A DNA stretch of 64,000 nucleotides from Patescibacteria group bacterium. GTDB taxonomy: Bacteria; Patescibacteriota; Microgenomatia; UBA10105; UBA927. Within the stretch, counting starts at the first letter, position 1; each line of letters starts with the position of its first letter. The stretch is from assembly GCA_049322955.1 (NCBI GenBank), contig JBMOPU010000012.1, forward strand, positions 788,791 through 852,790, written 5' to 3'. This document shows, one piece after another, positions 7,983-47,008 of this stretch. The notes under the pieces are model-generated. The model searched no databases and was not told where the DNA came from. It saw only the letters and a program-made list of their open reading frames with translations. Both the position numbers and the translations under genes were made by a program.

Positions 7983-7983
7983 A

Positions 7984-16009: not shown

Positions 16010-16011
16010 AA

Positions 16012-16857: not shown

Positions 16858-16954
16858 GCGGGTAGTTTATCACATTCTTTATGTGGTATTTCTTACTGAC
16901 AATATTTTTATGTAGTGCTATTTTCAAAATTATATTTGTAGCCGCAGGAGATTT

Positions 16955-28955: not shown

Positions 28956-29180
28956 AAAAAAACCCGTCCTCTTGATAATACTATAAAGGACGAGTCGGCA
29001 AACACCGATCGTGGTACCACCTTTGTTGCTTCTTGAACTGCTATAACGGGCTTACCCGAGGAATTCTACTTTCTCATTTTTGAGATTTCTTTTCCCTGCC
29101 TTTCCCGGTGATAGCCGGGATCAATCGCATTTCCATAAGCGAGTATAACAAATGCACCACTACGAAACAAGCCGTCGGAG
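28956..29180 (-). promoter_or_regulatory. T-box riboswitch leader (Ile) with intrinsic terminator upstream of ileS
   Basis: On minus strand: F-box CCGTTATAG (revcomp of 29041-29049), T-box core AAAGGTGGTACCACG (revcomp of 29009-29024; 12/14 to AGGGUGGNACCGCG), AGTA box, then hairpin CTCGTCCT/AGGACGGG followed by TTTTTTT abutting the ileS ATG. AUC-containing candidates for the specifier are present (ATCA, ATCT) but Stem I was not folded unambiguously. Confidence 0.5.
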
Positions 29181-29201
29181 AATAATAAACGAAGCGTTCG
29201 A

Positions 29202-29894: not shown

Positions 29895-29896
29895 AG

Positions 29897-31165: not shown

Positions 31166-31174
31166 ACCCTGAGA

Positions 31175-32377: not shown

Positions 32378-32978
32378 AACTCCGTATTTTTTTCATACCG
32401 AGTTATTATAACAGGCATAACTCCTCCATGCGGTATGAAATCTCTCATTACCCCTGTTCTGCTCCTCTGATGAGAAAACCGACATACCGCGGTATAATAA
32501 TCAGTTATGGGCTACCGCACCGTCGCAAAATGGGAAATAGATATCGGAGAAATGCAGGAAACGCAGGGTCTTGCCCGAATGTTCGGCAGTCTGTACCGGC
32601 AGGAATTCGGTATAAATTTCGAAATCAGGAAACGCGTTTTACCGTCAAAACGTCGGATCTCATGACTCTACGGGAAATTGAGAGACTTCTTCCCCAGCTT
32701 GCCCGTATCCGTTATCAGCATCACCACAAATACGGAACGGGAAACGATTACGGCAGACCCGTTGAGGATGATGAGATAACCGCAACACTCGAAGGCTTCG
32801 GTGTACGACTCCCCGGATGGCTCAGATAATTCCTTTGCAAGACATTTCGCACGCACCCGATCTTGTGTATTTTCCTGAAATGCACCAGGCATGCAGAGAA
32901 AACTTCCTGTTGTTTGCCACACGAAATAATCGCGCGCAATGCGAGCATTGAGGCATACGTGTGCCTCAGATGATATTG

Positions 32979-33698
32979 CTACTTGGTAATCACGTATTCC
33001 TTCTCGGGAACCGCTCCGATAAATGTCATCGTACCGTCGGCAAATGATACTTCATCCGCACGGAACGCATCCGTATGCTTGGCGATCACGTCATTAAGCA
33101 CCGATTCAGCCTCTTTATTTGCCCGCGCCACTATATCACCGGGGATAGGAATGGCACCTATCTTTACGGTGCGCGCGTCAACTTGCACGGAGTTGTTTCG
33201 AACCGATCCCTTGCCCAATACGTATATAGGTACGGCAAACGGCGGAATCGCGTATGTTTTCATCGCATCGCGTATTTGCTGTTCCGAATACCCCAACGCC
33301 ATAGCATAAGGCATGGCTTTATCGACAAGAAGGATCGCGGAACTTTCTATAGTTCCGTCGTCATGGATCTTTATCTGGATATTTTTCACCGGATAGTTTT
33401 TCCATGAGCGGTTATTTGAGTGCGCGGTAAGTTCGGTGCTGTTCATGGTGAACGAAACGGATTTCTTCCCTTCCAGCCGAAAATCGTCCGCTGGAGAGGC
33501 ATCACTGGGAAGCGAAATTATTTCAGTGCCTCCGCTCTTTTTCCATGCGGCACGTGAATCGTCGAGCGCATATCGTATCCCCAGATCTTTTTGTCCGGCT
33601 CCGATCAGATTTGAAAGACCCGGAATAACGCCGATCCCGGCAAGGATAATCGCCACGATGATGATGACGAGGGAAAGAAAAATGAGTACATATTTCAT
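32979..33698 (-). CDS. Membrane-anchored extracytoplasmic hypothetical protein
   Basis: Start set at internal Met (MKYVLIFLSLVIIIVAIILAGIGV) giving a TM anchor; ORF-track N-terminal extension to 33779 is unlikely. Confidence 0.45.
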   Translation of the reverse strand: MKYVLIFLSLVIIIVAIILAGIGVIPGLSNLIGAGQKDLGIRYALDDSRAAWKKSGGTEIISLPSDASPADDFRLEGKKSVSFTMNSTELTAHSNNRSWKNYPVKNIQIKIHDDGTIESSAILLVDKAMPYAMALGYSEQQIRDAMKTYAIPPFAVPIYVLGKGSVRNNSVQVDARTVKIGAIPIPGDIVARANKEAESVLNDVIAKHTDAFRADEVSFADGTMTFIGAVPEKEYVITK

Positions 33699-33791
33699 AT
33701 GGCGACAGTATACGCCACCCATGGCACATTGCTGTACGATATCCCACCGAATGAAACGTAGCCTCGCTACCTGAAACAAAAGGGAGATGCG

Positions 33792-34139
33792 TCACTTATT
33801 TACCAGGGCATTGAGGAAACTGTTGACGACAGACAGGACGATAACCGCAAGCACGGCGGTGCCGAAACCGTCTATCCTGAATCCGGGCACGATCGCACCG
33901 GTAATAAGCATAAGAAGGGCATTAATAACAATGGTAAACAACCCAAACGTCAGAATATTTATGGGAAGCGTAAGCAAGAGAAGCACCGGTTTAATACTCA
34001 CGCTCAATATCCCCCACACGATCGCAATCACAAAAAGCGAAATCCATCCGCTTATGGTAATACCCGGGAGAATATATGCGGTAATATAAAACGCCAACGC
34101 ATTGATGAGAAACCGCATCAGCATGAATTTATTATACAC
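33792..34139 (-). CDS. DUF360 / phage-holin-4_2 family small membrane protein
   Basis: 115 aa, 3-4 TM helices; ILPGITISGW...FGLFTIVINALLMLITGAIVPGFRIDGFGTA resembles the YvlD/DUF360 family. Confidence 0.6.
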   Translation of the reverse strand: MYNKFMLMRFLINALAFYITAYILPGITISGWISLFVIAIVWGILSVSIKPVLLLLTLPINILTFGLFTIVINALLMLITGAIVPGFRIDGFGTAVLAVIVLSVVNSFLNALVNK

Positions 34140-34160
34140 GCATACGTCAGAAAGCGCTGG

Positions 34161-34487
34161 TCATTTGCCGCGTTTAGGTTTATCCTTCTTCCGACGACGA
34201 AGAAGGAACTGCAATAACGTCATACCCTCAGGCAATTGGTATCGAGATTCTTCCCATGCTTTATCACGCGTGCCCGTCAGCGTATTGTTCTCTTTTGTGC
34301 CGGATCGCAACGCCGCACCGTCCCGTTCTTCATGAAATTCCGAAATCGCCCGCGATAGGTCGTCGTCATGCTCAATTCGGATCGGTTCATCTTCTTTTGC
34401 CATACAGAGGGCAGAACGGTCACAATAGTACACCTTGTTCACGTCCATTGAAAGGAAACTGCAGGATGCACGTGACCGGATAACCAT
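34161..34487 (-). CDS. Hypothetical small protein with Lys/Arg-rich C-terminus
   Basis: ORF co-directional and adjacent to the DUF360 gene; ends RRRKKDKPKRGK; no motif recognised. Confidence 0.3.
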   Translation of the reverse strand: MVIRSRASCSFLSMDVNKVYYCDRSALCMAKEDEPIRIEHDDDLSRAISEFHEERDGAALRSGTKENNTLTGTRDKAWEESRYQLPEGMTLLQFLLRRRKKDKPKRGK

Positions 34488-34501
34488 CGTAAAATGTTAC
34501 A

Positions 34502-34903
34502 ATGAGAGACGAAAGGAAAAACAGCATGAAAAAATACGGCGGATTTTGGAAACGGTTATTGGCGTACGCGATTGACTCACTCCTCATATACGCACTTTTT
34601 TGGCTGATTCCCGGCATCGATATGGATAACGCATGGGTCAATATGCTTATGTTTCTGACGTGGACCGCTTATTTCGTATGGATGGTGGGCACCTATGGCG
34701 CCACGATCGGGAAAATGATCCTCAAAATGAAAATCGTCAAAGAAAACGGCAAATCGCTCACCTATTCCGATGCATTACTGCGGGAGCTCGCCAGCTATTT
34801 GTCCTTCCTGGTGCTTGGTCTCGGCTATTTTTCGATCGGCTGGGATCCCCGCAAACAGGGCTGGCATGACAAGATCGCCAAAACGCTAGTGGTAAATGCC
34901 TAA
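34502..34903 (+). CDS. RDD family membrane protein
   Basis: GFWKRLLAYAIDSLL...WDPRKQGWHDKIAKTLVV carries the R-D-D signature positions of RDD-domain proteins. Confidence 0.7.
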   Translation: MRDERKNSMKKYGGFWKRLLAYAIDSLLIYALFWLIPGIDMDNAWVNMLMFLTWTAYFVWMVGTYGATIGKMILKMKIVKENGKSLTYSDALLRELASYLSFLVLGLGYFSIGWDPRKQGWHDKIAKTLVVNA

Positions 34904-34959
34904 CCAAGAGACATAAGAAGACCGGTGATATCGAGCCAAATGGTTTTTCCCGTGTCCGG

Positions 34960-35271
34960 TTACACGACTTCCTCGAGGTAATAATCGCAGGCAAATCCTT
35001 TGTCCTTTTGATGCCCGTGATGATGTGTCGTATCAATCACCTTTGCATCGGCAACCTTCCACCTTTTCCCGCGGTACCACGCGATATGCCCCGTCGGTAT
35101 GCTATCGAGATCCGTAACCATCCGGCGAAGTTGTTTGGACGGATGATCGAGGTGAATATGAAGTATTGCTTTTCGTGCCGGTCGTTCACGGAATGTTTCT
35201 AAACCCGCGCCAACCAATAGATCATTGGTGATATCTTCCGCCGTATATGTTTCGACACCTTGCCTGCACAT
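34960..35271 (-). CDS. Hypothetical protein with metallo-beta-lactamase-like HxHxDH motif (possibly truncated)
   Basis: AILHIHLDHPS (HxHxDH) plus downstream His cluster (HHHGH) in only 103 aa, too short for a full MBL fold. Confidence 0.25.
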   Translation of the reverse strand: MCRQGVETYTAEDITNDLLVGAGLETFRERPARKAILHIHLDHPSKQLRRMVTDLDSIPTGHIAWYRGKRWKVADAKVIDTTHHHGHQKDKGFACDYYLEEVV

Positions 35272-35348
35272 AGATTTGATAATTATATCAAACTATATCA
35301 ATACGAAGAGGGTGAGCGAATTATGCAAACTGCAATACCGACATGTAT

Positions 35349-35852
35349 TCATTTCAAGTCGCGAACAAATAATTGATCCTGCTGGGACCATCGGAGATGC
35401 GCAAGCACGATAAAGGCCTTATATCGTTCAAGTGCCTGCTCAGATCTTGCTCCGTCAATGTTTTCAATATCAATAGGTTGCGGCATACCAAGCCTTCGCA
35501 CCCCACTTTCCGGAAGAGTAGCTACGGCAATTGCTTCCGACATCAAAAAATCATCCCAGCGCATCCCCGTCGCCACTCTCCATGAAACTTTCGACCTCGC
35601 TCCTTGTAATTGTTGTAATACCATGTCATCGCCGCGGGCTTCAAAACTACTCACAGCGGCCTCAGTGTTTTTATAGCGAAGTACCGTCGAAAAGTCACCG
35701 GTTATGGGCGTACGCACCACATGACGCTCATGCCCGACAAGTAACCCCGTATCAAGCCGTTCGATATCCAATTGAGGCACGATCATGCGGAGATATCGAC
35801 GATACGCTCCCGATTGCAACGGGTACCGTTCTTTCATTGCTTCAAAATTCAT
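35349..35852 (-). CDS. Hypothetical protein (167 aa)
   Basis: Protein-like ORF; no family recognised. Confidence 0.4.
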   Translation of the reverse strand: MNFEAMKERYPLQSGAYRRYLRMIVPQLDIERLDTGLLVGHERHVVRTPITGDFSTVLRYKNTEAAVSSFEARGDDMVLQQLQGARSKVSWRVATGMRWDDFLMSEAIAVATLPESGVRRLGMPQPIDIENIDGARSEQALERYKAFIVLAHLRWSQQDQLFVRDLK

Positions 35853-35899
35853 AGAGATGCATTATACCTCAACGGATAAAGGTACTGCCATCAAGCACA

Positions 35900-36559
35900 C
35901 TAGAGTACGAGTGTATGGCCGTTTTTGCGTAGCCATGTTCGTGCCGATGCATATTCGGGATAAAACTCCCCTACCCGAGCCCAAAAGGACAAACGATGAT
36001 GCGGATGAGTGATATGGGCAAGTTCATGGATTACGACATAATCAATAATCGAAATCTCGGCCAAGATAAGCCGATACGAAAAACTGATGGTTCCCGTGCT
36101 CGAGCAGGAACCCCACCGGCTTGAAGTATCCCGTATGGAAACCCGCCGATAGGTAACCTTCATTTTTTCGGAAAAAAACGATACCCGTTTTGTGAGAAAC
36201 TCCTTGGCGTATTTGCGGCAGAATTGTTCCATATGATACTTCGGCTTTGCGAGAAATTTTTTGGGAAAAAATATTCGGGAGGGGGTGAGCACAATGGCAC
36301 TGCCGTCCGTGAGGTGGAGTGTGTAATCCTTTCCTCCCAATCGAAACAATTCGCCTTCTTCATACACTCTCTCTTTCTTCTTGGGAACGGATGCCAGTCT
36401 GCGCCGCGTGTTGTCTATCCAATCTTGCTTTGATGCGACAAATTGTCGGATAAAAAACTCCGGCATGTATTTGGGAGCACGTACTTCCAGTTCACCCGTC
36501 GGGAGAATATGAAGGGAAATTGATCTTCGGGGAAGGCGTTTGAGGATGTCGATGCGCAT
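35900..36559 (-). CDS. YgjP-like (DUF45/M48-related) zinc metallohydrolase
   Basis: C-terminal WGSCSSTGTISFSYRLILAEISIIDYVVIHELAHITHPHHRLSFW matches YgjP/DUF45 signature including HExxH. Confidence 0.75.
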   Translation of the reverse strand: MRIDILKRLPRRSISLHILPTGELEVRAPKYMPEFFIRQFVASKQDWIDNTRRRLASVPKKKERVYEEGELFRLGGKDYTLHLTDGSAIVLTPSRIFFPKKFLAKPKYHMEQFCRKYAKEFLTKRVSFFSEKMKVTYRRVSIRDTSSRWGSCSSTGTISFSYRLILAEISIIDYVVIHELAHITHPHHRLSFWARVGEFYPEYASARTWLRKNGHTLVL

Positions 36560-36638
36560 ATGCTGTAAAGCGTATGGTACACCATGCGTAACCCTTCGTC
36601 ATATTGCACATAATTTTAACCTATAGTATAATCCGCGG

Positions 36639-37259
36639 ATGACAAATACACGAGAAGCTTATCTTAAAATTGCATACGCAGGGCCGATTCTTAAAACGCG
36701 TTGGATTAACGACGTGTTTAACACGTATCTGGATCAACCACAGGGTGAGACCAACGTTGCGGCACTTGCCGTCGGAGGTTGTGAGGAATTACCTCATTTA
36801 CGTTTCTTTACCGGTCACGGCGCAAACATTCATGCGTTCGATATTCTGCAACCATCCATGAGAATGCGGGATTTATCAGAGTACGCCAAAGTTCAGTATC
36901 ATCGCGAAGGCATACAGCGTATTGACAAGGTCATACGCCATCTAGGCGGTGAACCTAATCTTGTCATATGTCGCGCACCTCGAATACTTGAGACAGTTTC
37001 GAAGCACGGATTTAAATTCAATAGATGGTGGGCAGACACTCTTGCAGGGTATGGGGAGAGAGTAGGCGGAAATGGACAAATGCTTGTGACCACCTATACA
37101 GGTGAAGAACGCGATATTGTTGCTGAAGCGTTAGATAAGCGTGCGATAAGTTTTTCAACCTATGAAAACGACTTATGCCCCATTAACGTCCCGAACTATA
37201 CCGGACCAAACGGTCCCATCAGAGCGGGAATAGACAAATACGTTTTGGTAAGCCGGTAA
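36639..37259 (+). CDS. Hypothetical protein, possible Rossmann/methyltransferase-like fold
   Basis: VAALAVGGCEE (motif I-like) followed ~17 aa later by IHAFDI (acidic post-I); otherwise unassigned. Confidence 0.35.
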   Translation: MTNTREAYLKIAYAGPILKTRWINDVFNTYLDQPQGETNVAALAVGGCEELPHLRFFTGHGANIHAFDILQPSMRMRDLSEYAKVQYHREGIQRIDKVIRHLGGEPNLVICRAPRILETVSKHGFKFNRWWADTLAGYGERVGGNGQMLVTTYTGEERDIVAEALDKRAISFSTYENDLCPINVPNYTGPNGPIRAGIDKYVLVSR

Positions 37260-37278
37260 TCAACCGGATGCGTATCGG

Positions 37279-37845
37279 CTAGATTCTGAATATCCGTTGA
37301 CGCAGTACTTCCGCCACTCCGTACCATCGTCCGCGAATCCAACGCTTTGCCAAGATAACGCCGATAACGTTACTTTCGGCATCAATCACAGGCTTTCCCG
37401 AAAAACCGAAATCCACGCGCTGACCGAGCGAAGATACGATGAGCTCTCTCGGTGCCCGACGCAATAAAACAGGTTTTTCTTTCGATACGGTCATCACCCG
37501 ATCGGTCGGCGGCATCAAGGGTATCGGAGACCCCAAAGTCACGTACTCAACGCCCGGTGTATAGTGCGTGGCGACTGATAATGCCTCGTTTATCGCAACG
37601 GGCTCGCTAAGCGATATATCCCGTGATCCGGCTACCTTTTCGAATGCAAGGTTCCTAAACGTTGCATTCCCAACCCTATTTCGCAGAATAAGCGCACGGG
37701 GCTCATGCGTTTTGCTGTCATGACTCACATGATACGCGGTAAGGATGCGGATACTCCCCTGGAGCCATATGGCACAAGCACCCCCGATAGGACCGTCACC
37801 GAAATACGCATCAAAATTTGATTGAGCGAGTTCTTGGGTATTCAT
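37279..37845 (-). CDS. Trypsin-like (S1/chymotrypsin fold) serine protease, apparently cytoplasmic (no signal peptide)
   Basis: His box ILTAYHVSHD (TAAHC-like), Ser box FGFSGKPV (GDSGGP-like); 188 aa; no N-terminal hydrophobic segment. Confidence 0.55.
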   Translation of the reverse strand: MNTQELAQSNFDAYFGDGPIGGACAIWLQGSIRILTAYHVSHDSKTHEPRALILRNRVGNATFRNLAFEKVAGSRDISLSEPVAINEALSVATHYTPGVEYVTLGSPIPLMPPTDRVMTVSKEKPVLLRRAPRELIVSSLGQRVDFGFSGKPVIDAESNVIGVILAKRWIRGRWYGVAEVLRQRIFRI

Positions 37846-37999
37846 AGCGCAATGGTGAGCATTATACTATAAGCTGTTTTGAGGCAAAATATCCTTACTT
37901 ACCATTTCGCATGATGTAAATTCGGGTATCGCCTGCGGCTTTTCTGAGGAGCGTACGTCGATTATTTTTGGCTAAACTGCCGCCATATTATGTGATATA

Positions 38000-38533
38000 A
38001 TGGAGCGTATGAACGCAAAAAATCAGACGGTTTCGTTTCGTCAAAGTAGCGTAATATTAATCATGCGACTTATCCTCGCCGAATGTATTATTCTTGGGGT
38101 AAATATTGCCCTTAAGTTACCACAGCTTGCCACTTCTGCACTCATGAATGACACCTCGGCAGTGACATCGTTGACTCTGATGAGTATTACGAGTCTCATC
38201 GCATCATCAATATTTCAACTTGCTCTGATCGCGTATATAACCCTGGACTGGACGAATCACGAATACGAAATTCGCGATGGTGCGATCATCCATCGACACG
38301 GTATTTTTTACCGAAAAGAAGAAATATATTCACTGCGTAATCTCGGCTCTGCCGTCATTTCTCAGTCTTTGTTGGGTCGACTATTTAACTTTGGAAGTAT
38401 TCACGCATACAGTCCGATCTTAAAACAGGATGTTCACATGCTTCTGGTACATAACCCCCAAGATATCGTGCATCACATACAAGACGACGTGGAACACACC
38501 GGAGGCAAACACGAAGTTATCCGTCGCAGTTAA
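38000..38533 (+). CDS. Membrane protein with bacterial PH (bPH_2/YdbS-YdbT-like) domain
   Basis: Two N-terminal TM helices followed by YEIRDGAIIHRHGIFYRKEEIYSLRNLGSAVISQSLLGRLFNFGSI typical of DUF304/bPH_2. Confidence 0.55.
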   Translation: MERMNAKNQTVSFRQSSVILIMRLILAECIILGVNIALKLPQLATSALMNDTSAVTSLTLMSITSLIASSIFQLALIAYITLDWTNHEYEIRDGAIIHRHGIFYRKEEIYSLRNLGSAVISQSLLGRLFNFGSIHAYSPILKQDVHMLLVHNPQDIVHHIQDDVEHTGGKHEVIRRS

Positions 38534-38732
38534 TGGCGCACTACAAAAAGGCGTCCAATACCGATACTCATTCGCGTGACGAAGCGGGTATTCCGATAAC
38601 CCCATACTCTTTCGAGAAATTGCACCCTTCCCTGTTTTTGGCAGATGCACTCAATATTGCCTCTGCCGAAAAAGATTTCTTTCCGCCTATTGTTTTTATA
38701 CCCGCACCCTCTCACCCGAAGACGGCGAAATG

Positions 38733-38774
38733 CAGAGAACAAAACAACCCATCGATATTTCTACCGATGGGTTG
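38733..38774 (-). terminator. Rho-independent terminator downstream of 38790..39776
   Basis: Perfect 10-bp inverted repeat CAACCCATCG/CGATGGGTTG (38745-38774) followed on the minus strand by TTTTGTTCT. Confidence 0.45.
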
Positions 38775-38789
38775 AAAAATTAAAAAACT

Positions 38790-39776
38790 TTACTTACTCC
38801 AATTTCCAAGACCTGATCGAATCTGACTTCTGTAACTCATTGTATTAAATTCATTACAGGGGTCTCTACTTACTTCTTGGATAACCGCGAAATCGCCCCA
38901 TATTGCAGGTCCAATTTCTCTACCACCTTCTGATTCATACCACATACCTTCTCCATAAGGAGTTGAGACTAACGAATCATGATGGGAACCTGTAGATACA
39001 GCAACGATTTTTACAAAATCACTCACTGAACACATTTCAAATTTTTTTGTTGCTCGACCGCTCGTGCTACTCCATGTTCCAGAGTCACCATACACGACAT
39101 CAGACCAAGTACCATTCATTGTTCCGTCCACTGCAACTGTTCCAATAAAAGTAGCAACATAGCCTAACATTGGAGCATCATACGTCAAAGTAAAAGCCAC
39201 ATTACTTCCAGTAATACTACCCGCAACAGTCCATGTATAACCTGCAGGAACATTACTACCAGTTCCTGTAATGTTTCCATTTACATCTTGGGTAATGGTC
39301 ATCGTTTTTGCGTATGTCCCTGGATACTTTGTACTGACTACATCAAAGTCCCATACACCCGACAAATTCAAGCTATACTTTGTTGTACTTGGATATGTTC
39401 CTGTAATATGGTTAGTCAACCACGCTCCTGAACCTTGAACTGGATTGGGCCTATCTAACTTGAAATCGGTGTCACAACTTTTGTTACTTAACCAAGCATC
39501 GTTCCACTTCATCATCAAGTTAAGACTGCCTTCTGTAACTGGCATAGTTGGTCTACTAAAATTTTCATATAGACCATTGAACATATGGGCTTGATAGTTA
39601 TATCCCCATTGATCGTATCCGAGTCCAATTATTTGACCTATCGCATCAGTCAACATACCTCCTTGAATTGTCTTGCACACATCTACCGCTGGCTTTGCGG
39701 ATTCAACGGGAGAAGCGACAAGAACAAATACTATACCAATTAAAACAAACATCAATAGTTTTTTCATCTTGTTCAC
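38790..39776 (-). CDS. Secreted hypothetical protein (signal peptide, Cys-containing, Thr/Gly-rich beta-rich), AT-rich, strong SD
   Basis: N-terminal signal peptide MNKMKKLLMFVLIGIVFVLVASPVESA; GGAGGTG Shine-Dalgarno 7 nt upstream of ATG (unusual relative to other genes here); AT-rich codon usage. Confidence 0.55.
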   Translation of the reverse strand: MNKMKKLLMFVLIGIVFVLVASPVESAKPAVDVCKTIQGGMLTDAIGQIIGLGYDQWGYNYQAHMFNGLYENFSRPTMPVTEGSLNLMMKWNDAWLSNKSCDTDFKLDRPNPVQGSGAWLTNHITGTYPSTTKYSLNLSGVWDFDVVSTKYPGTYAKTMTITQDVNGNITGTGSNVPAGYTWTVAGSITGSNVAFTLTYDAPMLGYVATFIGTVAVDGTMNGTWSDVVYGDSGTWSSTSGRATKKFEMCSVSDFVKIVAVSTGSHHDSLVSTPYGEGMWYESEGGREIGPAIWGDFAVIQEVSRDPCNEFNTMSYRSQIRSGLGNWSK

Positions 39777-39799
39777 CTCCTTTCATTATCAATTTGCAC

Positions 39800-39822
39800 A
39801 AAAAACCCGCCTCCGCGGCGGG
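39800..39822 (-). terminator. Orphan rho-independent terminator/attenuator hairpin immediately upstream of 38790..39776
   Basis: CCCGCC-TCCGC-GGCGGG hairpin followed on the minus strand by TTTTTT; no minus-strand ORF >=60 aa lies upstream of it for ~850 bp. Confidence 0.4.
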
Positions 39823-40677
39823 TGTCACGAAACAACACTACGTACTTTTTCTACGTAACTTTTCATGTCTTTTGTATCGTATCACATCTTATAGTCATAG
39901 TATGTAAAGCACCATACAACCGACCTGGCGGATATGGAATAAAAGATTGCTATGTAGGGGACGGGTATATCTTCTCCACCGATATTCGATATGCACGATC
40001 TGACCGAGGATCAACCGTATCAAACCCAAGCTCAGCCTCATTGCTCAAGATCCATTGTTTGATCAGAGCTCCTCCTATGAATTTGATTGCGTTATGCAAA
40101 GTAATTGTTCAAATACATGTTCAGACAAAATAAACTCATGGGATAAACAGTATTGCTATAATCAATGCGTTGAACCGTCAAAGCTGAATGTCAATCTAAA
40201 ACCTTATCAAAAACTAAATCTGACTATTTCTATAAACTGGTAAATAAATATTGTTATGAACTATACTAATTATTAGTATGACACCAATACTTATAGGGTT
40301 TATTATATTTACATTAATTATAGTCATAATAACTTTAATTCTAGAAAAACACCTACAGATCCTAATGGCAAAACTAGAATGGTAGTAGAGGGCTCTGATG
40401 GAAAGAGCAAAACTTACGAAATGTCTAATAAGGATGCCGATAATTTCACCGAGGCGATCTTTAAGGAAAGGTTTTTTGGTACGAAGAAGTGATTATGTTC
40501 TCTAAAAGGCAATTAAATTACACAAACGCTTCATTTGTCCCAAGCCGCTCCTTAGTCCTCGCGAAACCTCATTAATTTGCAGTCACCCTCCCCATGGCAT
40601 ACGTAACCAGGCTCAATTATATCCTATAGTTTGCAACTCTTTAACTTTTCTTCTATAATTGCCGCCGACGTAACCCT

Positions 40678-41451
40678 ATGGCAGAAAAAAGAAAACCCAC
40701 CATCTCGCCAGAGCAGATGCCTCGCTTCTCACACCCTCGCTGGCTTGCGGGTTTTCTCGAAGTCGGCGGCAGTATGAAGCTCACTATCGTGCGTAATCAT
40801 CAGAATGGGCATGAGACTCCCCAGGCACGACCCGAAATCGCTTACGGCGACGATGATCTGGATCGGATAACCAGACTTCGTGAGCTATGGGGAAGCACCG
40901 ACAAAGTTCGAACGGCGCGCTCCACAAGTTATGCGATTGTCCGAGGTGACCGTGCGGTATATATGGCCAACTCGATAGCTCCTGACGCCCTATCGAGACG
41001 CACTATCATCACCGCATTTCTTGATTGGCTACGTGCCGATTTTACCGAAGACCGTGTGGCGATAGCAGAGGGTGTCGTTGGGAGACGAACAGTTGATCCC
41101 GTACAACCGAAAGAATACCGCGGACTTGTACAAGACCCGGAGTTTGTCGCCGGAGTTATCGACTGTCGGGCTCGCGTGGCACCGGGCGAACAACCGGACA
41201 GAAAAAGAATTTCGTATTGGATATCGCACGTGGTCAAAGTGAATTCCGTAAACGGACCGCTCCTTGAGGCATTGCAATCGCAACATGGCGGACAATTTGT
41301 TCAAATCGGAAAAATGGGAGAAACCGTCCCTATGCGCGGCAAACAAGTTACCCTGAAAAACGATGCATTTGAGTGGATACTCGGTGCGGCAAACGCAAAG
41401 AACTTGATTACCTGGGCAAATCCAAGGCTTCCAATATCAAACGAAAAGTGA
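40678..41451 (+). CDS. Putative LAGLIDADG-like homing-endonuclease-fold protein (two degenerate motifs), free-standing
   Basis: First motif PRWLAGFLEVGGS (LAGLIDADG-like) at aa 21-33 followed by the expected ...DDLDRITRLRELWG... helix region; second motif FVAGVIDCRA at ~aa 148 followed by ...LLEALQSQHGGQFVQ..., spacing (~125 aa) typical of double-motif LAGLIDADG enzymes. GC-rich gene adjacent to AT-rich DNA. Confidence 0.4.
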   Translation: MAEKRKPTISPEQMPRFSHPRWLAGFLEVGGSMKLTIVRNHQNGHETPQARPEIAYGDDDLDRITRLRELWGSTDKVRTARSTSYAIVRGDRAVYMANSIAPDALSRRTIITAFLDWLRADFTEDRVAIAEGVVGRRTVDPVQPKEYRGLVQDPEFVAGVIDCRARVAPGEQPDRKRISYWISHVVKVNSVNGPLLEALQSQHGGQFVQIGKMGETVPMRGKQVTLKNDAFEWILGAANAKNLITWANPRLPISNEK

Positions 41452-41459
41452 GTTTATCG

Positions 41460-42641
41460 TTAACTCCTCTGTCGTAGGAATGCGGGGATGTCGAATTCGT
41501 CCTCTTCGGGAGGCGCGTCATCAGTTTGCGGGGCAAAACTCACGGGCGGCTGTTGCTTCATGGGTTGCTCCATAGGAGTGACGGGTTGCACGGGCGGCTT
41601 ACCGAAGGTCGGAGATTGTCTGCTAAAACTTCCGCCGTATCGCGGATCCATGGCGGGCTTACTGCTTAATTCACGCAGTCGCTTCTTGGTTTCATCAAAC
41701 CCTGTCGCCACCACCGTAATCTTGATCTGATCCACCAGTTTTTCATCGATGATGGCGCCGAAAATGATGTTGGCATCGGGATCCACCGCAGATGAAATAA
41801 GCTTTGCCGCCTCATCCACTTCGGCCATCGTGAGATCGTTGCCGCCGATGATGTTAAATAACACTCCCTTGGCTCCTTCGATGGTCGTTTCAAGAAGCGG
41901 CGAGGCAATCGCGGTACGTGCCGCGGTTGCCGCACGGTTTTCACCTACTCCCGTGCCGATTCCCATAAGGGCGCTTCCCGCATTGGTCATGATGGCGCGG
42001 ACATCCGCAAAGTCCACGTTGATAAGTCCCGGCATGGTGATCAGGTCAGAAATGCCCTGCACACCCTGACCCAACACGGAATCCGTGACGCGGAATGCTT
42101 CGACCAATGTCATTTTCTTGTCGATCACTTCAAGGAGCCGTTGGTTCGGGATGACGATAAGCGTATCCACTTTGTCCTTAAGATTTGCGATCCCCTCTTC
42201 CGCAGACACCATGCGTCGGGTGCCTTCGAAGTGAAAGGGCTTGGTGACAACGGCAACGGTCAGTGCGCCGACTTCTTTGGCAATTTCTGCAAACACGGGA
42301 GTGGCTCCCGTCCCCGTGCCGCCGCCTTCACCGCAGGTCAAAAAAACCATGTCGCTGTCGCGAAGATGCTCGGCAATCTTTTCCCGTGATTCCTCCGCCG
42401 CCTGTCGGCCGATATCGGGATTTCCCCCGGCACCCAATCCGCGGGTCAGGTTATCACCGATTTGGATTTTGCTTTGCGCTTGGGAAAGAAGCAATGCCTG
42501 CGCGTCGGTATTGACGGAAATAAAATCCACGCCGTTAATCTGATTGTTGAGGATCATGGAGTTGACGGCATTACTTCCGCCGCCGCCGATGCCGACGACT
42601 TTAATTTTGGCAAACCTTGCGATATCCGGTTTTATAAGCAT
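41460..42641 (-). CDS. ftsZ: Cell division protein FtsZ
   Basis: Tubulin signature GGGTGTG ([16 protein letters not shown]), N-terminal [16 protein letters not shown]-terminal conserved peptide DIPAFLR. Confidence 0.95.
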
Positions 42642-42703
42642 AGGTATATAAATACTATGATAGTAGATTATTCCGTCAGGGGCAGTCTCACGGGGTTAAC
42701 AAT

Positions 42704-44002
42704 TTAGGGCAAGAACGACTTTACCAGATCAATGACCTTTCCAGCAAGTCCCTTTACTTGTATGGCACTTCCGATTTTTCCGAAACCGGAAAGCAATGAT
42801 CCTGATGACTCGGATTTACCCGTCGAGTTCCCCCACAACAGCAGTCCGACTCCCGCGGCATAGGAAGGAGTCATGATTTCGTCGATAAGTCCCGTTATTT
42901 TTTGCGGAATACCGATGTGCACGGGCATCGCAAGGTTTCTTCGGGCCGCTTCGACGGCGCCGACGGTCAGCGCACCTCCGCCCGTGATCACGACACCCGA
43001 AGGCGTCATCCCGCCGAATCCGCTACGCTTTATTTCAAGTCCTACCATCGTGAATATTTCGTTGAGCCTCGGCTTGATAATACCTTCGATCAACGTTTTC
43101 TTCGAAATCGATCGCATGCCCTCGGGAAGCCCCAAATCGGAAACGTCAATCTCATCATCTTTTTCAGTCTTGCTTTTCGGTTTCTCGTCTTCACTCAGGA
43201 CGGGTGTTTTGGGCAATTCACCCAAGCGAAGCTTGATCTTCTCGGCACTTTCAAGTGACACCCGAAGTCCCGCGGCAAGATCCTTGGTGATGTTTATCGC
43301 ACCGACAGGAATAACCGATGAATACGAAAGCGCGCCTTCCACGAAAATCGCCACATCCGTGGTTCCTCCGCCGATATCGACTAACACAACTCCCAATTCT
43401 TTTTCCGTATCGGAAAGCGTTGCGGCCGCGGCGGCAAGACCGCCGAACGCAATGCCCGCAACTTCCACACCTAACTCAGACACGCATTTATGCAGATTAC
43501 GGATTGCGGTTGCTCCTCCCGTAACAAGATGGGTTTCCACTTCGAGCCGCACTCCTCCCATCCCGATGGGATCAACTATCCCCTCCTGACCGTCCACGAT
43601 ATACCCGCGGGGAAGGACATGGAGAATCTCTCGAGACGTCGGCAACTGTACCGCTTTGGCGGCATCAATGACGCGCTTTACGTCAAAGGCGGTGATTTCT
43701 TTTTCCGGCTCGGCAACGGCAACCACGCCGTGCGAATTGAGCGATGCCACATGCGCTCCTCCGATACTCACAAACGCCTGGGCGACGGATGCTCCCGCCA
43801 TACGTTCGGCGGCTTCCAAAGAGGCGGAAATCGCCTCTGTCGCTTCTTCGATGTTGACTACCTGGCTTTTTCGGAGTCCCCGACTGGGTGACACCGACAC
43901 GCCGATAATGCGGGCTTCTCCTTCATCGGTGATTGCGGCGATAAGCGTGACTATTTTTGAGGAACCGATGTCTATTGCAGAGAGGATGCGATCGCGTGCC
44001 AT
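42704..44002 (-). CDS. ftsA: Cell division protein FtsA
   Basis: Actin-fold ATPase; DIGSSKIV phosphate-1 motif, VDIGGGTTDVAIF phosphate-2. Start placed at MARDRIL (44002) to avoid overlap with ftsQ; longest ORF begins 44047. Confidence 0.9.
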   Translation of the reverse strand: MARDRILSAIDIGSSKIVTLIAAITDEGEARIIGVSVSPSRGLRKSQVVNIEEATEAISASLEAAERMAGASVAQAFVSIGGAHVASLNSHGVVAVAEPEKEITAFDVKRVIDAAKAVQLPTSREILHVLPRGYIVDGQEGIVDPIGMGGVRLEVETHLVTGGATAIRNLHKCVSELGVEVAGIAFGGLAAAAATLSDTEKELGVVLVDIGGGTTDVAIFVEGALSYSSVIPVGAINITKDLAAGLRVSLESAEKIKLRLGELPKTPVLSEDEKPKSKTEKDDEIDVSDLGLPEGMRSISKKTLIEGIIKPRLNEIFTMVGLEIKRSGFGGMTPSGVVITGGGALTVGAVEAARRNLAMPVHIGIPQKITGLIDEIMTPSYAAGVGLLLWGNSTGKSESSGSLLSGFGKIGSAIQVKGLAGKVIDLVKSFLP

Positions 44003-44018
44003 AAAAGTGGTATGAAAA

Positions 44019-44723
44019 CTAGTAATTGGTGATGACCGGTTTTTCAAACCGCAAATCTATCACCGTGGGCAGTGTTCCTTTCATTCTAAACCCCTCTACA
44101 ATTATTTGTAAAGTATCTGCTTTCGCGCTTAAGTCGCCTGTTTGAGGAAGAAATATGTTTGTATTGCCGAGTTTGGCAAATAATGACTGCGTATCCCGTG
44201 GAGCGATAACCGAAATACCGGCATTTCCCTTCATCTGCCGCAGAAACGACAGCGCCGATTCCACCCGATCATCCGTGACTCTTCCCCCGGTCGAGAGAAT
44301 GCCCACATCAAACACAAGCAAAGGATGCGTATCTTTCCTTCCTACCGAACCCAAAATCAGTCCGTACTCATCCAGTTCATAAATATTTCCGGCGGATTCG
44401 ATCAGCACGAAAGTGGGTCGTTTCATAAGATGCACCACGAGCGTTCCCGGAAATTTCCGTTCAAACGATACGTCTTTGAGCAGGGGGTACGAGGAAAGCA
44501 ATTCTTTACGGAATGTGGAAACGGGCAGAAACAGCAGATTCTTGCCGAACTTTTCCCGATCCAGTTCTATCGTCATTCCGGGCGCATCCACGATAATATC
44601 GCGGATGGTGAATGCCCGAACAAGAAACATGGCAAGGATAAATGTCCCGATCAACAGCGCCGCCACTCCGCCGATGAAGCGTACCGTTCTTTTTAGGGTG
44701 TACGTCGTGAGCCGGGATGCCAT
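44019..44723 (-). CDS. ftsQ: Cell division protein FtsQ/DivIB (POTRA domain)
   Basis: N-terminal TM, POTRA-like segment (IRDIIVDAPGMTIELDREKF), position between murG and ftsA. Confidence 0.7.
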   Translation of the reverse strand: MASRLTTYTLKRTVRFIGGVAALLIGTFILAMFLVRAFTIRDIIVDAPGMTIELDREKFGKNLLFLPVSTFRKELLSSYPLLKDVSFERKFPGTLVVHLMKRPTFVLIESAGNIYELDEYGLILGSVGRKDTHPLLVFDVGILSTGGRVTDDRVESALSFLRQMKGNAGISVIAPRDTQSLFAKLGNTNIFLPQTGDLSAKADTLQIIVEGFRMKGTLPTVIDLRFEKPVITNY

Positions 44724-44732
44724 GGTCTTTAG

Positions 44733-45857
44733 TTATCGTCGGGGCGTCAATACTTCTGAAACCGTTTTCATGAGTCGTATCGCCCCGTCGTGCGGTGCCG
44801 TGGCGGCAAGCGCTTTCGCTTGTTCCTTGCGCTGTGTCATGGTTGCCGTGATTGCATCGATTGCGGCAATTAAGGACGCCGCGGTAAGCTGTCGCTGTTC
44901 AAGAATTATTGATCCTGCTTTTTCGAGTACTTTTGCATTATGGAATTGCTCGTTACCGGCAGACCACGGCAGAGGTATCAGTACGGCAACGGCGCCGACC
45001 AGCGCCAATTCCGACACCGTATTTGCGCCGGATCTTCCGACGATAAGCGCACTATGGTGCAATGCCCAACTGTATTCTTCGGCGGTGAAAAATGCCTTGT
45101 GGATATATCGCTTTCGGAGACTTTGCGGCAGTGCTCTTGCCGCTTTGTCCCCCGCTTCCACGGAAAGCCTCCCCACCTGATGCAAGACCGTGTAACGGCT
45201 AAGGAGTTTTTCGAGGGCCGCGAAAACGGCGGTATTGATACTTACCGAACCCGTGCTTCCGCCCACGACAAATAACACGGGGGTATCCGAATCAACGGCA
45301 AAAGGTGATGCTTTGGGGGGCGTGAGTACCGCACTCCGTATGGGCAGTCCGGTCACTTCCACGCGGCTTGTTTTCGGGAGCATGGCCGTCGTATCCGCAA
45401 AACTCACACATACGCGTGTTGCGATACGGGCGATAATACGGTTGGCTAATCCCGGACGAGTGGTTTGTTCGTGCGTGATAACGGGAATACCCAAAAGTTT
45501 CGCACACAAAGCAACGGGAAGCGCCACATACCCGCCGAAAGACAATATGCCGTCCGGACGCTTCCGAAGAAGCATGATAAACGCCTGCGCAAAACCGACG
45601 GGAACCTTGAACAGGGAAAAAAACGTTCCTATCCCCAAATCTCGCTTCAATCTGCCCGCGGTAATCGGCACAAACGACACCCCGAGATCGTGAATAAGGC
45701 GGTATTCCTCCGAAAGGACTTTCGTTCCTTCCAACGAATACTTTCTCCCGACAAATATAAGCCGCCAATTCGGATGCGATTGTCGTATCGCCTCTATGGT
45801 AGCGATTGCGGGAGTCACATGACCGCCGGTAATGACGAGCGTTATCGGATGGTTCAT
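44733..45857 (-). CDS. murG: UDP-GlcNAc--lipid I GlcNAc transferase MurG
   Basis: ITGGHVTPAIA N-terminal G-loop, GT28 C-terminal domain (VGRSGANTVSELALVG), synteny. Confidence 0.9.
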   Translation of the reverse strand: MNHPITLVITGGHVTPAIATIEAIRQSHPNWRLIFVGRKYSLEGTKVLSEEYRLIHDLGVSFVPITAGRLKRDLGIGTFFSLFKVPVGFAQAFIMLLRKRPDGILSFGGYVALPVALCAKLLGIPVITHEQTTRPGLANRIIARIATRVCVSFADTTAMLPKTSRVEVTGLPIRSAVLTPPKASPFAVDSDTPVLFVVGGSTGSVSINTAVFAALEKLLSRYTVLHQVGRLSVEAGDKAARALPQSLRKRYIHKAFFTAEEYSWALHHSALIVGRSGANTVSELALVGAVAVLIPLPWSAGNEQFHNAKVLEKAGSIILEQRQLTAASLIAAIDAITATMTQRKEQAKALAATAPHDGAIRLMKTVSEVLTPRR

Positions 45858-46996
45858 AACTTGTTTCCTGACTTACTTATATTATAGACAATACCAAGCG
45901 CCGCCAAGGTTACGATCAGCCCCGATCCCCCGTAGGAAATAAGCGGCAACGGCACACCGGTAAGCGGAAGTAACGCTACCATCGAACCCGTGTTGACGAG
46001 CGCCTGTGCACCGATCCACGAACCCACTCCCAACGTAAATAATTTACCGAACGGATCGTTCACCCGTTTGGCGATTTTAAAGCATCGCCAGACAAGAAAT
46101 ACGAACAGTGCAATGACAATAACCGCCCCGAAAAATCCCACTTCTTCTCCGAGGATGGCAAAAATGGAATCGGTGTTTGCCTCGGGCAAGTATTCGTATT
46201 TCTGCCGTGACTTCCCTAAACCCACCCCGAAAAATCCCCCCGATCCCAACGCGATAAGCGCCTGACGGATTTGATATGACGCCCCCAACGGATCCGATTC
46301 GGGATTGAGGAACGTCGTGACCCGGCGGAGTCTATACGGCTGTACGACGGCAAGTCCAGCAATCCCGACAATAAGCACGGGAATAAGCCCGATAAAATGC
46401 CCTACGGGAGCACCGGAAAGAAAGTAGAGTGCCATGGAGGTAACAATAATCGTTATCGCGGTTCCCAAATCCGGCTCGATAATGACGAGACCCGATACCA
46501 TGCCGAGCAACAGAAGGAATGCCAATAATCTCCCGTGCTCTTTGGTGGCAAACCATGCCGAAAGATATAGCACCATGGCCAGCTTCGCAAATTCCGCGGG
46601 CTGAAGGACAAAGAATCCGAAATCAATCCACCGATGCGCACCAAGCGCGCGTACTCCGAGGCCAGGGATAAATACGGCAATGAGCAGGATGAGCGTTACG
46701 ACGATTCCCGGAACCGCAAACCGTTTCCAAATACCGTACGGAATACGAGAAAGAATCGTAAATCCCGTAAATCCCAACAGCAACCATTTCACCTGATCGC
46801 GGACAAAATGATACGGATTGGAAAAATCCCGAAACGCGATGGCCACCGAAGAATCGTACACCATGATGATGCCGATGATGGATAACACGACCGTCGTAAG
46901 GAGGAGCCACCGGTCCCCCCGGCCTTCCGAATTTTTTATATGTCGTACCGCACTCTGCCTATCTGCTTTGTGCGCAAGTGATGCAAAAATCTTCAT
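45854..46996 (-). CDS. ftsW: SEDS peptidoglycan glycosyltransferase FtsW
   Basis: FtsW/RodA family, 10 TM; ATGA overlap with murG; located between mraY and murG. Confidence 0.85.
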   Translation of the reverse strand: MKIFASLAHKADRQSAVRHIKNSEGRGDRWLLLTTVVLSIIGIIMVYDSSVAIAFRDFSNPYHFVRDQVKWLLLGFTGFTILSRIPYGIWKRFAVPGIVVTLILLIAVFIPGLGVRALGAHRWIDFGFFVLQPAEFAKLAMVLYLSAWFATKEHGRLLAFLLLLGMVSGLVIIEPDLGTAITIIVTSMALYFLSGAPVGHFIGLIPVLIVGIAGLAVVQPYRLRRVTTFLNPESDPLGASYQIRQALIALGSGGFFGVGLGKSRQKYEYLPEANTDSIFAILGEEVGFFGAVIVIALFVFLVWRCFKIAKRVNDPFGKLFTLGVGSWIGAQALVNTGSMVALLPLTGVPLPLISYGGSGLIVTLAALGIVYNISKSGNKL

Positions 46997-47008
46997 GGTG
47001 CCGGGATC

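Follow-up and report, generated by a model that had tools for sequence, protein, structure and literature searches.

A small strain-variable islet carrying exported-protein genes next to ftsZ in an uncultured Candidatus Gottesmanbacteria species

Anatomy of the locus

We have analyzed a low-GC region found in a 64 kb stretch of DNA (hereafter the window) from an uncultured member of Candidatus Gottesmanbacteria (CPR), whose FtsZ is 87-89% identical to those of Gottesmanbacteria MAGs. The GC scan over the 64 kb gave 0.39-0.45 across positions 37800-40000 and 0.32-0.34 at 40000-40600, with a window mean of 0.49. This trough was one of only two falling more than 2 sd below the mean, the other being at 15-18 kb. 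A first-pass annotation of the same DNA had reported a drop in GC, and the drop is real (0.40 in the islet against 0.49), but the limits that it gave to the block, 38534-40677, were wrong because a gene for a bPH_2 membrane protein (38000-38533) belongs to the islet. The part that varies between strains goes from about 37985 to 40555. Measured against strains in which the site is empty, the islet (37985..40555) has 2,571 bp and a GC of 0.399. It is located between a gene coding for a 188-aa protein and another coding for a 257-aa protein with a LAGLIDADG fold, next to ftsZ. The region has 7 terminator-like sites, where 3.3 +/- 2.0 were expected.

The first cargo gene (38000..38533, plus strand) codes for the bPH_2 membrane protein, of 177 aa (PF03703, E=1.1e-8; phrog_3707, membrane-flanked domain), and has a GC3 of 0.438. 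The second (38790..39767, minus strand) codes for a secreted protein of 325 aa, which has a classical signal peptide and four conserved, nearly invariant cysteines, as the earlier description of a Cys-containing secreted protein had anticipated. The ORF proposed there, 38790-39776, exists, but the GTG at 39776 falls within the Shine-Dalgarno (SD) sequence AAGGAGGTG and the true start is almost certainly the ATG at 39767, as gene-called in P0001, L088 and L089. About 1,900 proteins of CPR bacteria and DPANN archaea make up the unannotated family to which it belongs. It contains an avidin-like beta-barrel of 8 strands, placed within a larger, conserved domain rich in Cys and Trp. Fold comparison against the PDB found no counterpart for the non-barrel domain. 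The barrel suggests a predicted role in ligand or surface binding, the function of the cargo proteins being judged here only from fold and signal peptide. Homologues 65-82% identical to the 325-aa gene appear in unrelated genomic contexts, with other flank GC and the same SD and terminator. Close homologues in L001 and L005 bear their own extended -10 promoter-like motif, TGCTATACT, and a promoter scan found none for the copy in the window. Besides, the terminator located directly upstream should block read-through, so that expression of the gene is putative. A distant member of the family, in L108, has neither the SD nor the hairpin described below and ends in a terminator of another kind.

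The SD AAGGAGGTG (39774..39782, minus strand), 8 nt upstream of the ATG, is the strongest among the 64 ORFs of the window, 40 of which have no SD-like 4-mer. Such a strong SD is atypical for the host, in agreement with the first impression that it was distinctive. Both flanking terminators noticed before were recovered on the minus strand, at 38774-38745 and 39823-39805. The one that ends the 325-aa gene (38745..38774) has a 13-bp stem, ACCCATCGG/CCGATGGGT, followed by GTTGTTT. The upstream one (39805..39823) has a 7-bp stem with 6 GC pairs followed by TTTTTT, and is placed about 20 nt upstream of the SD and 127 nt downstream of a possible ORF 3' remnant (39950..40062, minus strand). This remnant would comprise the last 36 codons and the stop of an ORF that has 114 aa in L105. 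Before the stop the window reads KQWILSNEAELGFDTVDPRSDRAYRISVEKIYPSPT and L105 reads KQWILSNEDELGFDTVDPRSDRAYRITVEKMYTSPT, and the homology stops at 40062. We tentatively consider 39950-40062 a truncated gene, from the alignment of both versions; 4 of the 36 residues differ, which gives no sign of purifying selection. The upstream terminator is accounted for by this putative remnant and not by an unidentified transcript.

Beyond 40062 an AT-rich spacer (40063..40277, GC 0.293) gave no coding or RNA signal. Next to it is a gene for a small membrane-anchored protein of 71 aa (40278..40492, plus strand), frameshifted by the loss of 1 nt after 40350. At the deletion site L090 has one more T, and its ORF is intact. 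The linked short ORFs of the first-pass annotation, 40278-40385 and 40379-40492 (claimed from 40377), are the halves of this one gene. Six other lineages (L090, L094-L097 and L106) keep the ORF whole, a 71-aa gene is also called at the equivalent position of L098, and two 71-aa proteins (P0121 and P0122) are present in the protein collection, on contigs of up to 181 kb. The 325-aa and 71-aa genes have a GC3 of 0.29, against 0.46-0.61 for the backbone genes. The suspicion of pseudogenised DNA was thus well founded, given the frameshifted gene and the possible remnant at 39950-40062. Of the description of some 850 bp here as decayed or non-coding DNA, the decay stands, as the 71-aa gene is broken, but the stretch is not purely non-coding, since it contains that gene and an ORF 3' end. 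As had been stated, the minus strand of 39830-40677 has no ORF reaching 60 aa, and only the 71-aa ORF, broken in the window strain, was recovered as a gene there. When the six-frame stop-free pieces of at least 25 aa from 39824-40677 and the restored 71-aa protein were compared with 5.8 billion proteins nothing scored, but the search also missed the identical 71-aa entry of the collection, which makes its negative outcome unreliable as a sign of non-coding DNA. For the 71-aa protein, PF25184 (YxzE-like, 19 bits for a cut-off of 40) and phrog_38187 (E=0.001, below threshold) were rejected. The grouping of a 37-aa fragment with 382-aa alanine racemases was a short-sequence clustering artefact.

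The right backbone neighbour (40678..41451, plus strand) codes for the 257-aa two-domain protein, with an alpha-beta-beta-alpha-beta-beta-alpha core fold in two copies per chain. Throughout the family other residues stand in place of the last acidic one of each motif, G/A for motif 1 in 48 of 55 sequences and R/K for motif 2 in 51 of 55, so that both canonical catalytic acids are missing. The replaced position is the equivalent of I-CreI D20. The protein reaches no Pfam LAGLIDADG threshold and had no matches in the metagenome scan. Unlike LAGLIDADG homing endonucleases, its gene is found outside any intron or intein, and unlike WhiA, a LAGLIDADG-derived regulator, the protein does not have the WhiA-type C-terminal HTH domain. 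A homing endonuclease as the driver of the variability was discarded, both catalytic acids being missing across the family.

Variation of the islet among strains

We compared the locus with its counterparts in six sister strains belonging to this Ca. Gottesmanbacteria species and with a wider panel of 106 loci. The position of the islet is fixed among strains, with the 188-aa gene at one side and the 257-aa gene and ftsZ at the other, and the flanks are 93-99% identical. The content of the slot is not. In the window, L088 and L089 it holds the bPH_2 and 325-aa genes; in L094, L095, L105 and L106 it holds a cassette with a 283-aa gene; in L099-L102 and L104 it is empty, with 213-268 bp separating the flanking genes. 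Close strains carry this non-homologous content at a local ANI of 97-98%. The block is therefore not conserved with the same composition in relatives, but differs between strains. None of these genes is found downstream of ftsZ in the four Gottesmanbacteria species nearest to this one.

The swap could be delimited with base precision. In the four strains with the cassette, 994 bp with an unrelated 283-aa secreted-protein gene (8236-9087 in L094) replace the cargo module (module A, 37881..39759), which contains the bPH_2 gene and the body of the 325-aa gene. The left junction is directly upstream of the -10 box of the 188-aa gene, where identity resumes. The right junction is exactly at the start codon, and identity resumes at ATGAAAAA, the SD and the terminator. 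As the breakpoint coincides with the start codon, the ribosome-binding region is shared, and the SD is 100% conserved in the strains with the 283-aa cassette. The 283-aa and 325-aa proteins are unrelated apart from their signal peptides, and both genes finish in one and the same conserved hairpin. The GC of the 283-aa cassette is 0.478, which is host-like, so that not every variant of the slot is compositionally foreign.

The 5' region common to both cargo genes (module B, 39768..40062, minus strand) contains the SD, the upstream terminator, a TACGTAG..TACGTAG repeat and the ORF remnant. It is 96.6-98.3% identical in L094, L105 and L106 and is missing from the empty-site strains. A metagenome scan with the 41-nt terminator-SD module gave no matches. 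The third segment (module C, 40063..40555) is different in L105. Taken together, the 850-bp stretch is 97-98% identical in sister strains with the other cargo gene, and it lies outside the most recent cargo swap.

The stem of the 38745-38774 hairpin is kept both in the close homologues of the 325-aa gene and in the unrelated 283-aa cassette. Its pattern (ACCCATCGG...CCGATGGGTTGTTT) has one match in the 64 kb, for 0 expected. The strict pattern matched, among the 106 loci, only the cassette ends of 9 loci, and variant stems are visible in the alignment for L001, L091 and L093. The slot cargo genes are flanked by this hairpin and by the leader AAGGAGGTGAACAAGATG.

In L101, L102 and L104 only a 4-bp filler separates window positions 37984 and 40556, and in L099 and L100 a 58-bp filler connects position 37878 with 40556. 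The sole feature of the junctions is an imperfect short direct repeat, GCCGCC / GCCGCTCC. At the islet ends we found no inverted or direct repeats beyond 5-7 nt of imperfect microhomology and no target-site duplication, no mobility gene bounds the islet, and no transposase domain was found, so that these features point to no mechanism for the first insertion event. The horizontally acquired cassette suggested by the first-pass annotation agrees with the absence or replacement of the block in sister strains, with the GC3 of 0.29 and with the presence of relatives in other contexts.

Divergence of the flanking genes

The 188-aa backbone gene at the left flank (37279..37845, minus strand) has a divergence of about 10%, versus 1-2% in the neighbouring genes. 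It is 89-92% identical to all the sister strains, with 24-30 synonymous versus 12-19 non-synonymous codon changes (30 to 18 against L094). Identity to the sister strains is 98-99% for YgjP, the 257-aa gene and ftsA. Lopez-Perez, Martin-Cuadrado & Rodriguez-Valera 2014 (PMC4033161) describe replacement flexible islands as marked at their boundaries by peaks of substitutions that are mostly synonymous, and the peak seen in the 188-aa gene would be typical of recombinational island replacement. Diversifying selection could contribute as well, given the 12-19 non-synonymous codons. At the right flank (module B and the 257-aa gene) the peak is absent, so that the two-sided signature of recombination is not seen. 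Besides, L096 is about 98% identical in the segment with the 71-aa and 257-aa genes, and its ftsA and ftsZ are 88% and 91.5% identical.

Origin of the islet

We consider it likely that 37985-40555 is a small strain-variable islet of foreign, low-GC origin, set in the ftsZ-ileS plasticity zone and built as a mosaic of three modules. These would be gained, swapped, truncated and lost among co-existing strains, mainly by recombination in the conserved flanks and occasionally by microhomology deletions. Module A would be the current cargo, with the bPH-domain membrane protein and the Sec-exported, disulfide-stabilised 325-aa protein. Module B would provide a strong SD and a start codon to whichever cargo occupies the slot. 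In module C the membrane-peptide gene would have been freshly pseudogenised by the 1-nt deletion. We infer that the replacement takes place by homologous recombination, and the cargo proteins may act at the surface or outside of an episymbiotic CPR cell, where diversifying or frequency-dependent selection would operate on them. Secondary deletions between the GCCGCC/GCCGCTCC microhomologies would account for the empty sites equally well.

Several other origins were weighed. The islet might be what decay has left of an integrative mobile element or a prophage inserted at the ftsZ 3' end, with the 325-aa gene as moron-like cargo. In L101-L103 an integrase-bearing element with a GC of 42% abuts the last 9 codons of ftsZ, so that the ftsZ 3' end apparently serves as attachment site in this species. 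The genes ftsZ and ileS stay neighbours across species and the entire gap between them is variable, from 444 bp to 12.5 kb. A gene with terminators at either side is moron-like, the PHROG matched by the bPH_2 gene falls in the 'moron' category and a holin-like gene (PF04020) is located 4-5 kb from the islet. However, there is no integrase in 28956-41459 or elsewhere in the window, nor any phage structural gene, and the 30-nt ftsZ 3' end is single copy in the window, with no att duplicate. The 257-aa backbone gene, which every strain has, intervenes between the islet and ftsZ. The 325-aa family, the 257-aa family and the ACCCATCGG hairpin had no match on 2.9 million viral contigs. We regard this origin as unlikely.

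It is decidedly unlikely that there was no insertion at all, that is, that the block is ancestral, with a low GC coming from its function or from a local bias in mutation, and that the empty strains arose by deletion. The junction of the empty sites at short direct repeats is what a microhomology deletion would give, and the L099 filler resembles the end of the 283-aa cassette, suggesting a deletion there. Nevertheless, a GC3 of 0.29 against 0.46-0.61 and the atypical SD are hard to ascribe to local bias, the genes are missing downstream of ftsZ in the four nearest species, and the closest relatives of the 325-aa gene are in unrelated genomes and contexts.

The slot might also be a dedicated cassette-exchange site. 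The conserved 5' module (insulating terminator, SD, ATG-Lys-Lys) and the conserved 3' hairpin would then be functional limits for recombination or expression, and ORFs of exported proteins would be exchanged between them by a site-specific or hairpin-directed recombinase, with an integron-like logic but without IntI and attC. Two unrelated genes do begin at one and the same ATGAAAAA, each preceded by the same SD/terminator module, and end in a shared, sequence-conserved hairpin, which is found once in the 64 kb and only at cassette ends among the 106 loci, and which accompanies the clade of the 325-aa gene through unrelated genomes. Against this, no recombinase or integrase was found within 10 kb, in the window or in the sister strains, and the hairpin has the complete anatomy of an ordinary intrinsic terminator, without the attC cores RYYYAAC/GTTRRRY. 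The bPH_2 gene and the spacers beyond the hairpin vary between strains too, so that the hairpin does not bound the exchanged unit. Just two cargo types were observed, and the distant family member has neither SD nor hairpin. In-situ replacement of the coding sequence, with the old terminator left behind, is simpler. Such an exchange site is very unlikely, and there is only a faint chance that the hairpin is the recombination signal of an undiscovered enzyme with the nuclease-dead LAGLIDADG-fold neighbour as a possible DNA-binding partner. If true, this would be a new, integron-independent shuffling of surface-protein genes between ultrasmall symbionts.

The ncRNA locus put forward in the first-pass annotation was not supported, and a regulatory RNA in 39830-40277, either an sRNA ending at 39805-39823 or a long 5' leader or attenuator of the 325-aa gene, is highly improbable: the strong terminator close to the SD with no minus-strand ORF of at least 60 aa above, the similar terminator-then-SD order upstream of the L093 homologue and the 97-98% identity in sister strains with other cargo speak for it, but the folding of 39768-40120 (minus strand) had an MFE z-score of -0.81, with 22 of 100 shuffles folding as well, the best Rfam matches had 22 bits (gathering scores 37 and 85), one being a look-alike of the terminator and no other family reaching E<=1, the conservation is not above that of the surrounding DNA and stops in L105 at 40062 and in L096 at 40225, the minus strand gave no promoter-like site, and the stretch overlaps a recognisable ORF 3' end.

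Comparison with known systems

The strain-variable islet, probably exchanged by recombination, resembles the replacement and additive flexible genomic islands (fGIs) described in the same article (PMC4033161). With them it shares the fixed position between core genes, the non-homologous content, the foreign composition and a cargo predicted to be exposed or exported. Their synonymous peaks at the boundaries are matched in part, by one boundary gene. The islet is nonetheless smaller, with 1-2.6 kb and one or two genes, whereas the classical fGIs are glycosylation clusters of tens of kb. Its divergence peak is found at one side only and the host is a CPR bacterium. Besides, some version of the island would be expected in all strains and here five (L099-L102 and L104) are empty, so that the islet mixes additive and replacement behaviour. 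The islet is ordinary genome plasticity seen in unusual detail, and current ideas are not overturned.

The genomes of CPR bacteria (Patescibacteria) are tiny and their cells live attached to those of a host, and for this reason exported and surface proteins likely decide which hosts and phages they meet. At base resolution, the locus shows how strains of a single uncultured CPR species exchange, lose and disrupt exported-protein genes in one slot beside the cell-division cluster. Also noteworthy are the exported family of about 1,900 members in CPR and DPANN, the acid-less LAGLIDADG-fold family by ftsZ and the mobile element apparently using the conserved ftsZ 3' end as attachment site.

Phage morons are independently transcribed cargo genes with their own promoter and terminator. 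The 325-aa gene is likewise a single gene with its own strong SD, terminators at both sides, deviant GC and unrelated neighbours; it differs in having neither a prophage context, nor relatives on viral contigs, nor a detected promoter in the window copy. Integron cassettes are also promoter-less ORFs with a conserved imperfect 3' hairpin and a common expression region upstream, but here IntI, attI and the R''/R' cores are missing, the hairpin is T-tailed and there is a single cassette and not an array. IS elements and transposons differ by their terminal inverted repeats, target-site duplication and transposase, none of which the islet has. As for the 8-stranded up-and-down barrels of avidin and streptavidin, that of the 325-aa protein is similar to them in fold only, with an identity of 15-23% and no sequence match in Pfam or PDB, and the residues that are invariant in its family are mostly outside the barrel.

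The islet and its empty slot

The best description of the sequence between a 188-aa gene (37279-37845, minus strand) and a 257-aa gene next to ftsZ (40678-41451, plus strand) is a flexible islet, small, mosaic and fed by horizontal transfer, of exported and membrane protein genes. The copy in the window additionally holds a small gene with a fresh frameshift and, possibly, a truncated remnant. Genome dynamics of this kind are known, and they are recorded here to the single base for a CPR bacterium. We retrieved contigs of the same strain and of sister strains by exact-protein look-ups and compared them with the window by BLAST. Three contigs belonged to the same strain: L089 matched the window at 100% over 33050-47061, and L088 and L090 both at 99.9%. 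Six sister lineages were also recovered. Among the sister contigs, L101, L102 and L104 had the slot empty, with window position 37984 joined to 40556 by a 4-bp filler, and in L099 and L100 position 37878 was joined to 40556 via 58 bp. The surplus of the window over the empty-slot strains was 37985-40555, 2,571 bp with a GC of 0.399, matching a trough in which GC drops below the window mean of 0.49, to ca. 0.40 (37800-40600), and is lowest, 0.32-0.34, at 40000-40600. Only two troughs in the 64 kb were more than 2 sd under the mean (windows of 0.5-2.6 kb), this one and another at 15-18 kb. The first-pass annotation was right about the AT-rich block and about a horizontally acquired cassette, the slot being empty or differently filled in sister strains, and its boundaries (38534-40677) have to be moved to those defined by the empty slots.

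In L094, L095, L105 and L106, 994 bp replace 37881-39759, which holds the bPH_2 gene (38000-38533, plus strand) and the body of a gene for a 325-aa secreted protein. The protein encoded by the replacement (283 aa) has a signal peptide and is otherwise unrelated to the window cargo. L105 also has a different 954-bp segment instead of 40063-40539, and in L096, a more distant lineage, homology is found only from 40225 rightwards. Inverted repeats and mobility genes were sought at the islet ends and none was found; an imperfect direct repeat of 5-7 nt (GCCGCC / GCCGCTCC) was all that appeared there. GC3 was 0.294 in the 325-aa gene, 0.296 in a 71-aa gene, 0.438 in bPH_2 and 0.46-0.61 in the backbone genes.

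The cargo gene and its replacement

The ORF annotated at 38790-39776 (minus strand) is real. Its start is almost certainly not there but at ATG 39767, because GTG 39776 sits within the Shine-Dalgarno (SD) AAGGAGGTG (39774-39782, minus strand, upstream of the ATG) and gene callers give 325 aa. Of 64 non-overlapping ORFs in the window, this one has the strongest SD; the others had been said to lack one, which was the case for 40 of the 64. A consensus scan recovered the two flanking terminators as strong minus-strand intrinsic signals at 38774-38745 (13-bp stem) and 39823-39805 (GC-rich 7-bp stem followed by TTTTTT). Adjoining the latter on its upstream side, at 39832-39858 (minus strand), the palindromic heptamer TACGTAG occurs twice, 13 nt apart start to start and 100% identical in L094; the pair could be an AT-rich hairpin or an operator-like site.

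The junctions of the cargo swap were base-precise. On the right, 100% identity restarts at the start codon (ATGAAAAA), SD and upstream terminator, and on the left directly upstream of the 188-aa gene's -10 box. The start-codon junction is common to both cargo genes, and the 283-aa cassette closes with a hairpin, ACAACCCATCGGAAGGTCCGGTGGGTTGTTTGG, that is essentially that of the 325-aa gene. This motif is present once in the window (0 expected), restricted to these cassette ends among 106 loci and not found in viral contigs. The simplest reading of the shared hairpin and start junction is that the coding sequence was replaced in situ, and the former SD and terminator would have been retained. 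The more novel alternative, a dedicated cassette boundary, seems to us very improbable.

No Pfam domain or informative name was found among the 1,888 relatives of the 325-aa protein, whose named sources were Nomurabacteria, Beckwithbacteria, other Patescibacteria and one Nanoarchaeia archaeon. Four of them (82%, 76%, 76% and 65% identity) were located in four wholly different neighbourhoods, with flank GC of 0.385-0.43 and the gene itself near 0.40. Common to them are an SD of the GGGGGTGA/GGAGGTGA type and a terminator conserved in sequence, ACCCATCGG-loop-CCGRTGGGTTGTTTG; a Nomurabacteria member, 45% identical, has neither. About 200 residues of the 325-aa protein, outside its avidin-like beta-barrel, have no PDB counterpart; most invariant Trp, Gly and Asn residues lie there, along with four Cys that are nearly invariant. 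We infer an exported, disulfide-stabilised protein with a predicted binding role. The closest out-of-species relative (82%; in L001/L002, next to 7716-8614) has a defence cluster (type I R-M hsdRMS, ThsB-TIR, 8xMP) directly upstream and a glycan-synthesis cluster downstream, another typical variable region.

The region 39830-40677

This region had been described as lacking minus-strand ORFs of at least 60 aa and containing two short plus-strand ORFs, and the ORF scan agreed on both counts. Of the explanations offered, an ncRNA did not hold: an Rfam scan (E<=1) gave nothing besides a terminator look-alike, and folding energy was no better than in shuffles (z=-0.81). A pseudogenised gene is what we found. 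L090, from another sequencing run and 99.94% identical, has one additional T after window position 40350 that restores a 71-aa ORF (40278-40492, plus strand), whose product has a transmembrane helix at the N terminus and a charged tail. L094-L097 and L106 carry this ORF unbroken, with a single S/P polymorphism; in L098 a 71-aa gene is called at the matching position; and the protein is present in the protein collection from contigs of up to 181 kb. Since the deletion site, GAAAAAC[T]ACC, is neither a homopolymer nor a simple repeat, the deletion is probably genuine: the gene was either pseudogenised very recently or is polymorphic in the population.

Positions 39950-40062 (minus strand) match the last 36 codons and stop of a 114-aa ORF in L105, and the homology stops at 40062. 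The stop codon lies 127 nt upstream of the 39805-39823 terminator, which would explain a terminator with no gene in front. A remnant of a real gene is likely, short of proof because the strains differ at 4 of the 36 residues and no known family was matched by the 114-aa ORF. The spacer at 40063-40277 (29% GC) carried no signal. A six-frame protein search of the region gave no match, but it also missed its positive control, the 71-aa protein, which is in the collection, and it is given no weight here.

Signs of recombination at the borders

The 188-aa gene at the islet border was 89-92% identical to all sister strains, with 30 synonymous and 18 non-synonymous codon changes against L094; YgjP, the 257-aa gene and ftsA were 98-99% identical. 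Boundary peaks of mostly synonymous substitutions are presented in PMC4033161 as the hallmark of flexible islands swapped by homologous recombination between clonal frames. No divergence peak was found at the right boundary. Compared with L096, the segment with the 71-aa and 257-aa genes was ca. 98% identical, versus 88% in ftsA and 91.5% in ftsZ, indicating a recent exchange of this segment between diverged lineages.

An exhaustive profile search placed the 257-aa protein in a family of 248 representative clusters, a few of which reach into Pfam LAGLIDADG models. In 55 aligned members the catalytic-acid position (in the I-CreI register) was G/A in motif 1 and R/K in motif 2, so the family is probably not nucleolytic. 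With the catalytic acids replaced in both motifs, homing was dropped as a driver of the islet.

The ftsZ-ileS zone

FtsZ (41460-42641, minus strand) was 87-89% identical to Ca. Gottesmanbacteria MAGs, and upstream of its gene are ftsA, murG, ftsW and the remaining dcw cluster. The syntenic stretch shared with the four nearest species ends exactly at the ftsZ stop codon, and synteny picks up again at ileS (26112-28955), rodA, L21 onward. The ftsZ-ileS gap was 444 bp in L011, 1.3 kb in L013, 3.9 kb in L009, 6.8 kb in L010 and 12.5 kb in the window (28956-41459), and therefore the islet is inside a species-level plasticity zone. Barring weak paralogue-level matches, no gene of 28956-41459 was found within +/-10 kb of ftsZ in the four nearest species.

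Further small strain-specific indels occur in the same zone at 36609-37287, 35302-35908 and 32488. A 206-aa gene (36639-37259) is missing from L094 and L101, and a 167-aa gene (35349-35852) from L101, L102 and L105. At 32488, L094 and L101 are longer by 414 bp. In L099 and L100, the 206-aa and 188-aa genes have a Peptidase_S51 gene between them. In L101 (6775-12774), as in L102 and L103, homology to the window ends 30 bp into the ftsZ 3' end (41460-41489), leaving only the codons for IPAFLRQRS*. Beyond this stub lies a 42%-GC segment with NYN, HTH_3, Omega-repressor-like and phage-integrase genes. It resembles an integrative element that has the conserved sequence coding for the FtsZ C-terminal peptide as its att site. 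Beside this putative att site, ftsZ was 93% identical to that of L094, with 78 synonymous versus 3 non-synonymous codon changes, and the adjoining ftsA 99.2%; the ftsZ divergence is a second recombination-type peak. The other GC trough of the window (15000-17950) is deeper, with a minimum of 0.278. A glycosyltransferase of the PMT_2 type, a SAM methyltransferase and a lipase/alpha-beta-hydrolase-like protein of 660 aa are encoded there, and this trough may represent a foreign island for glycosylation of the cell envelope.
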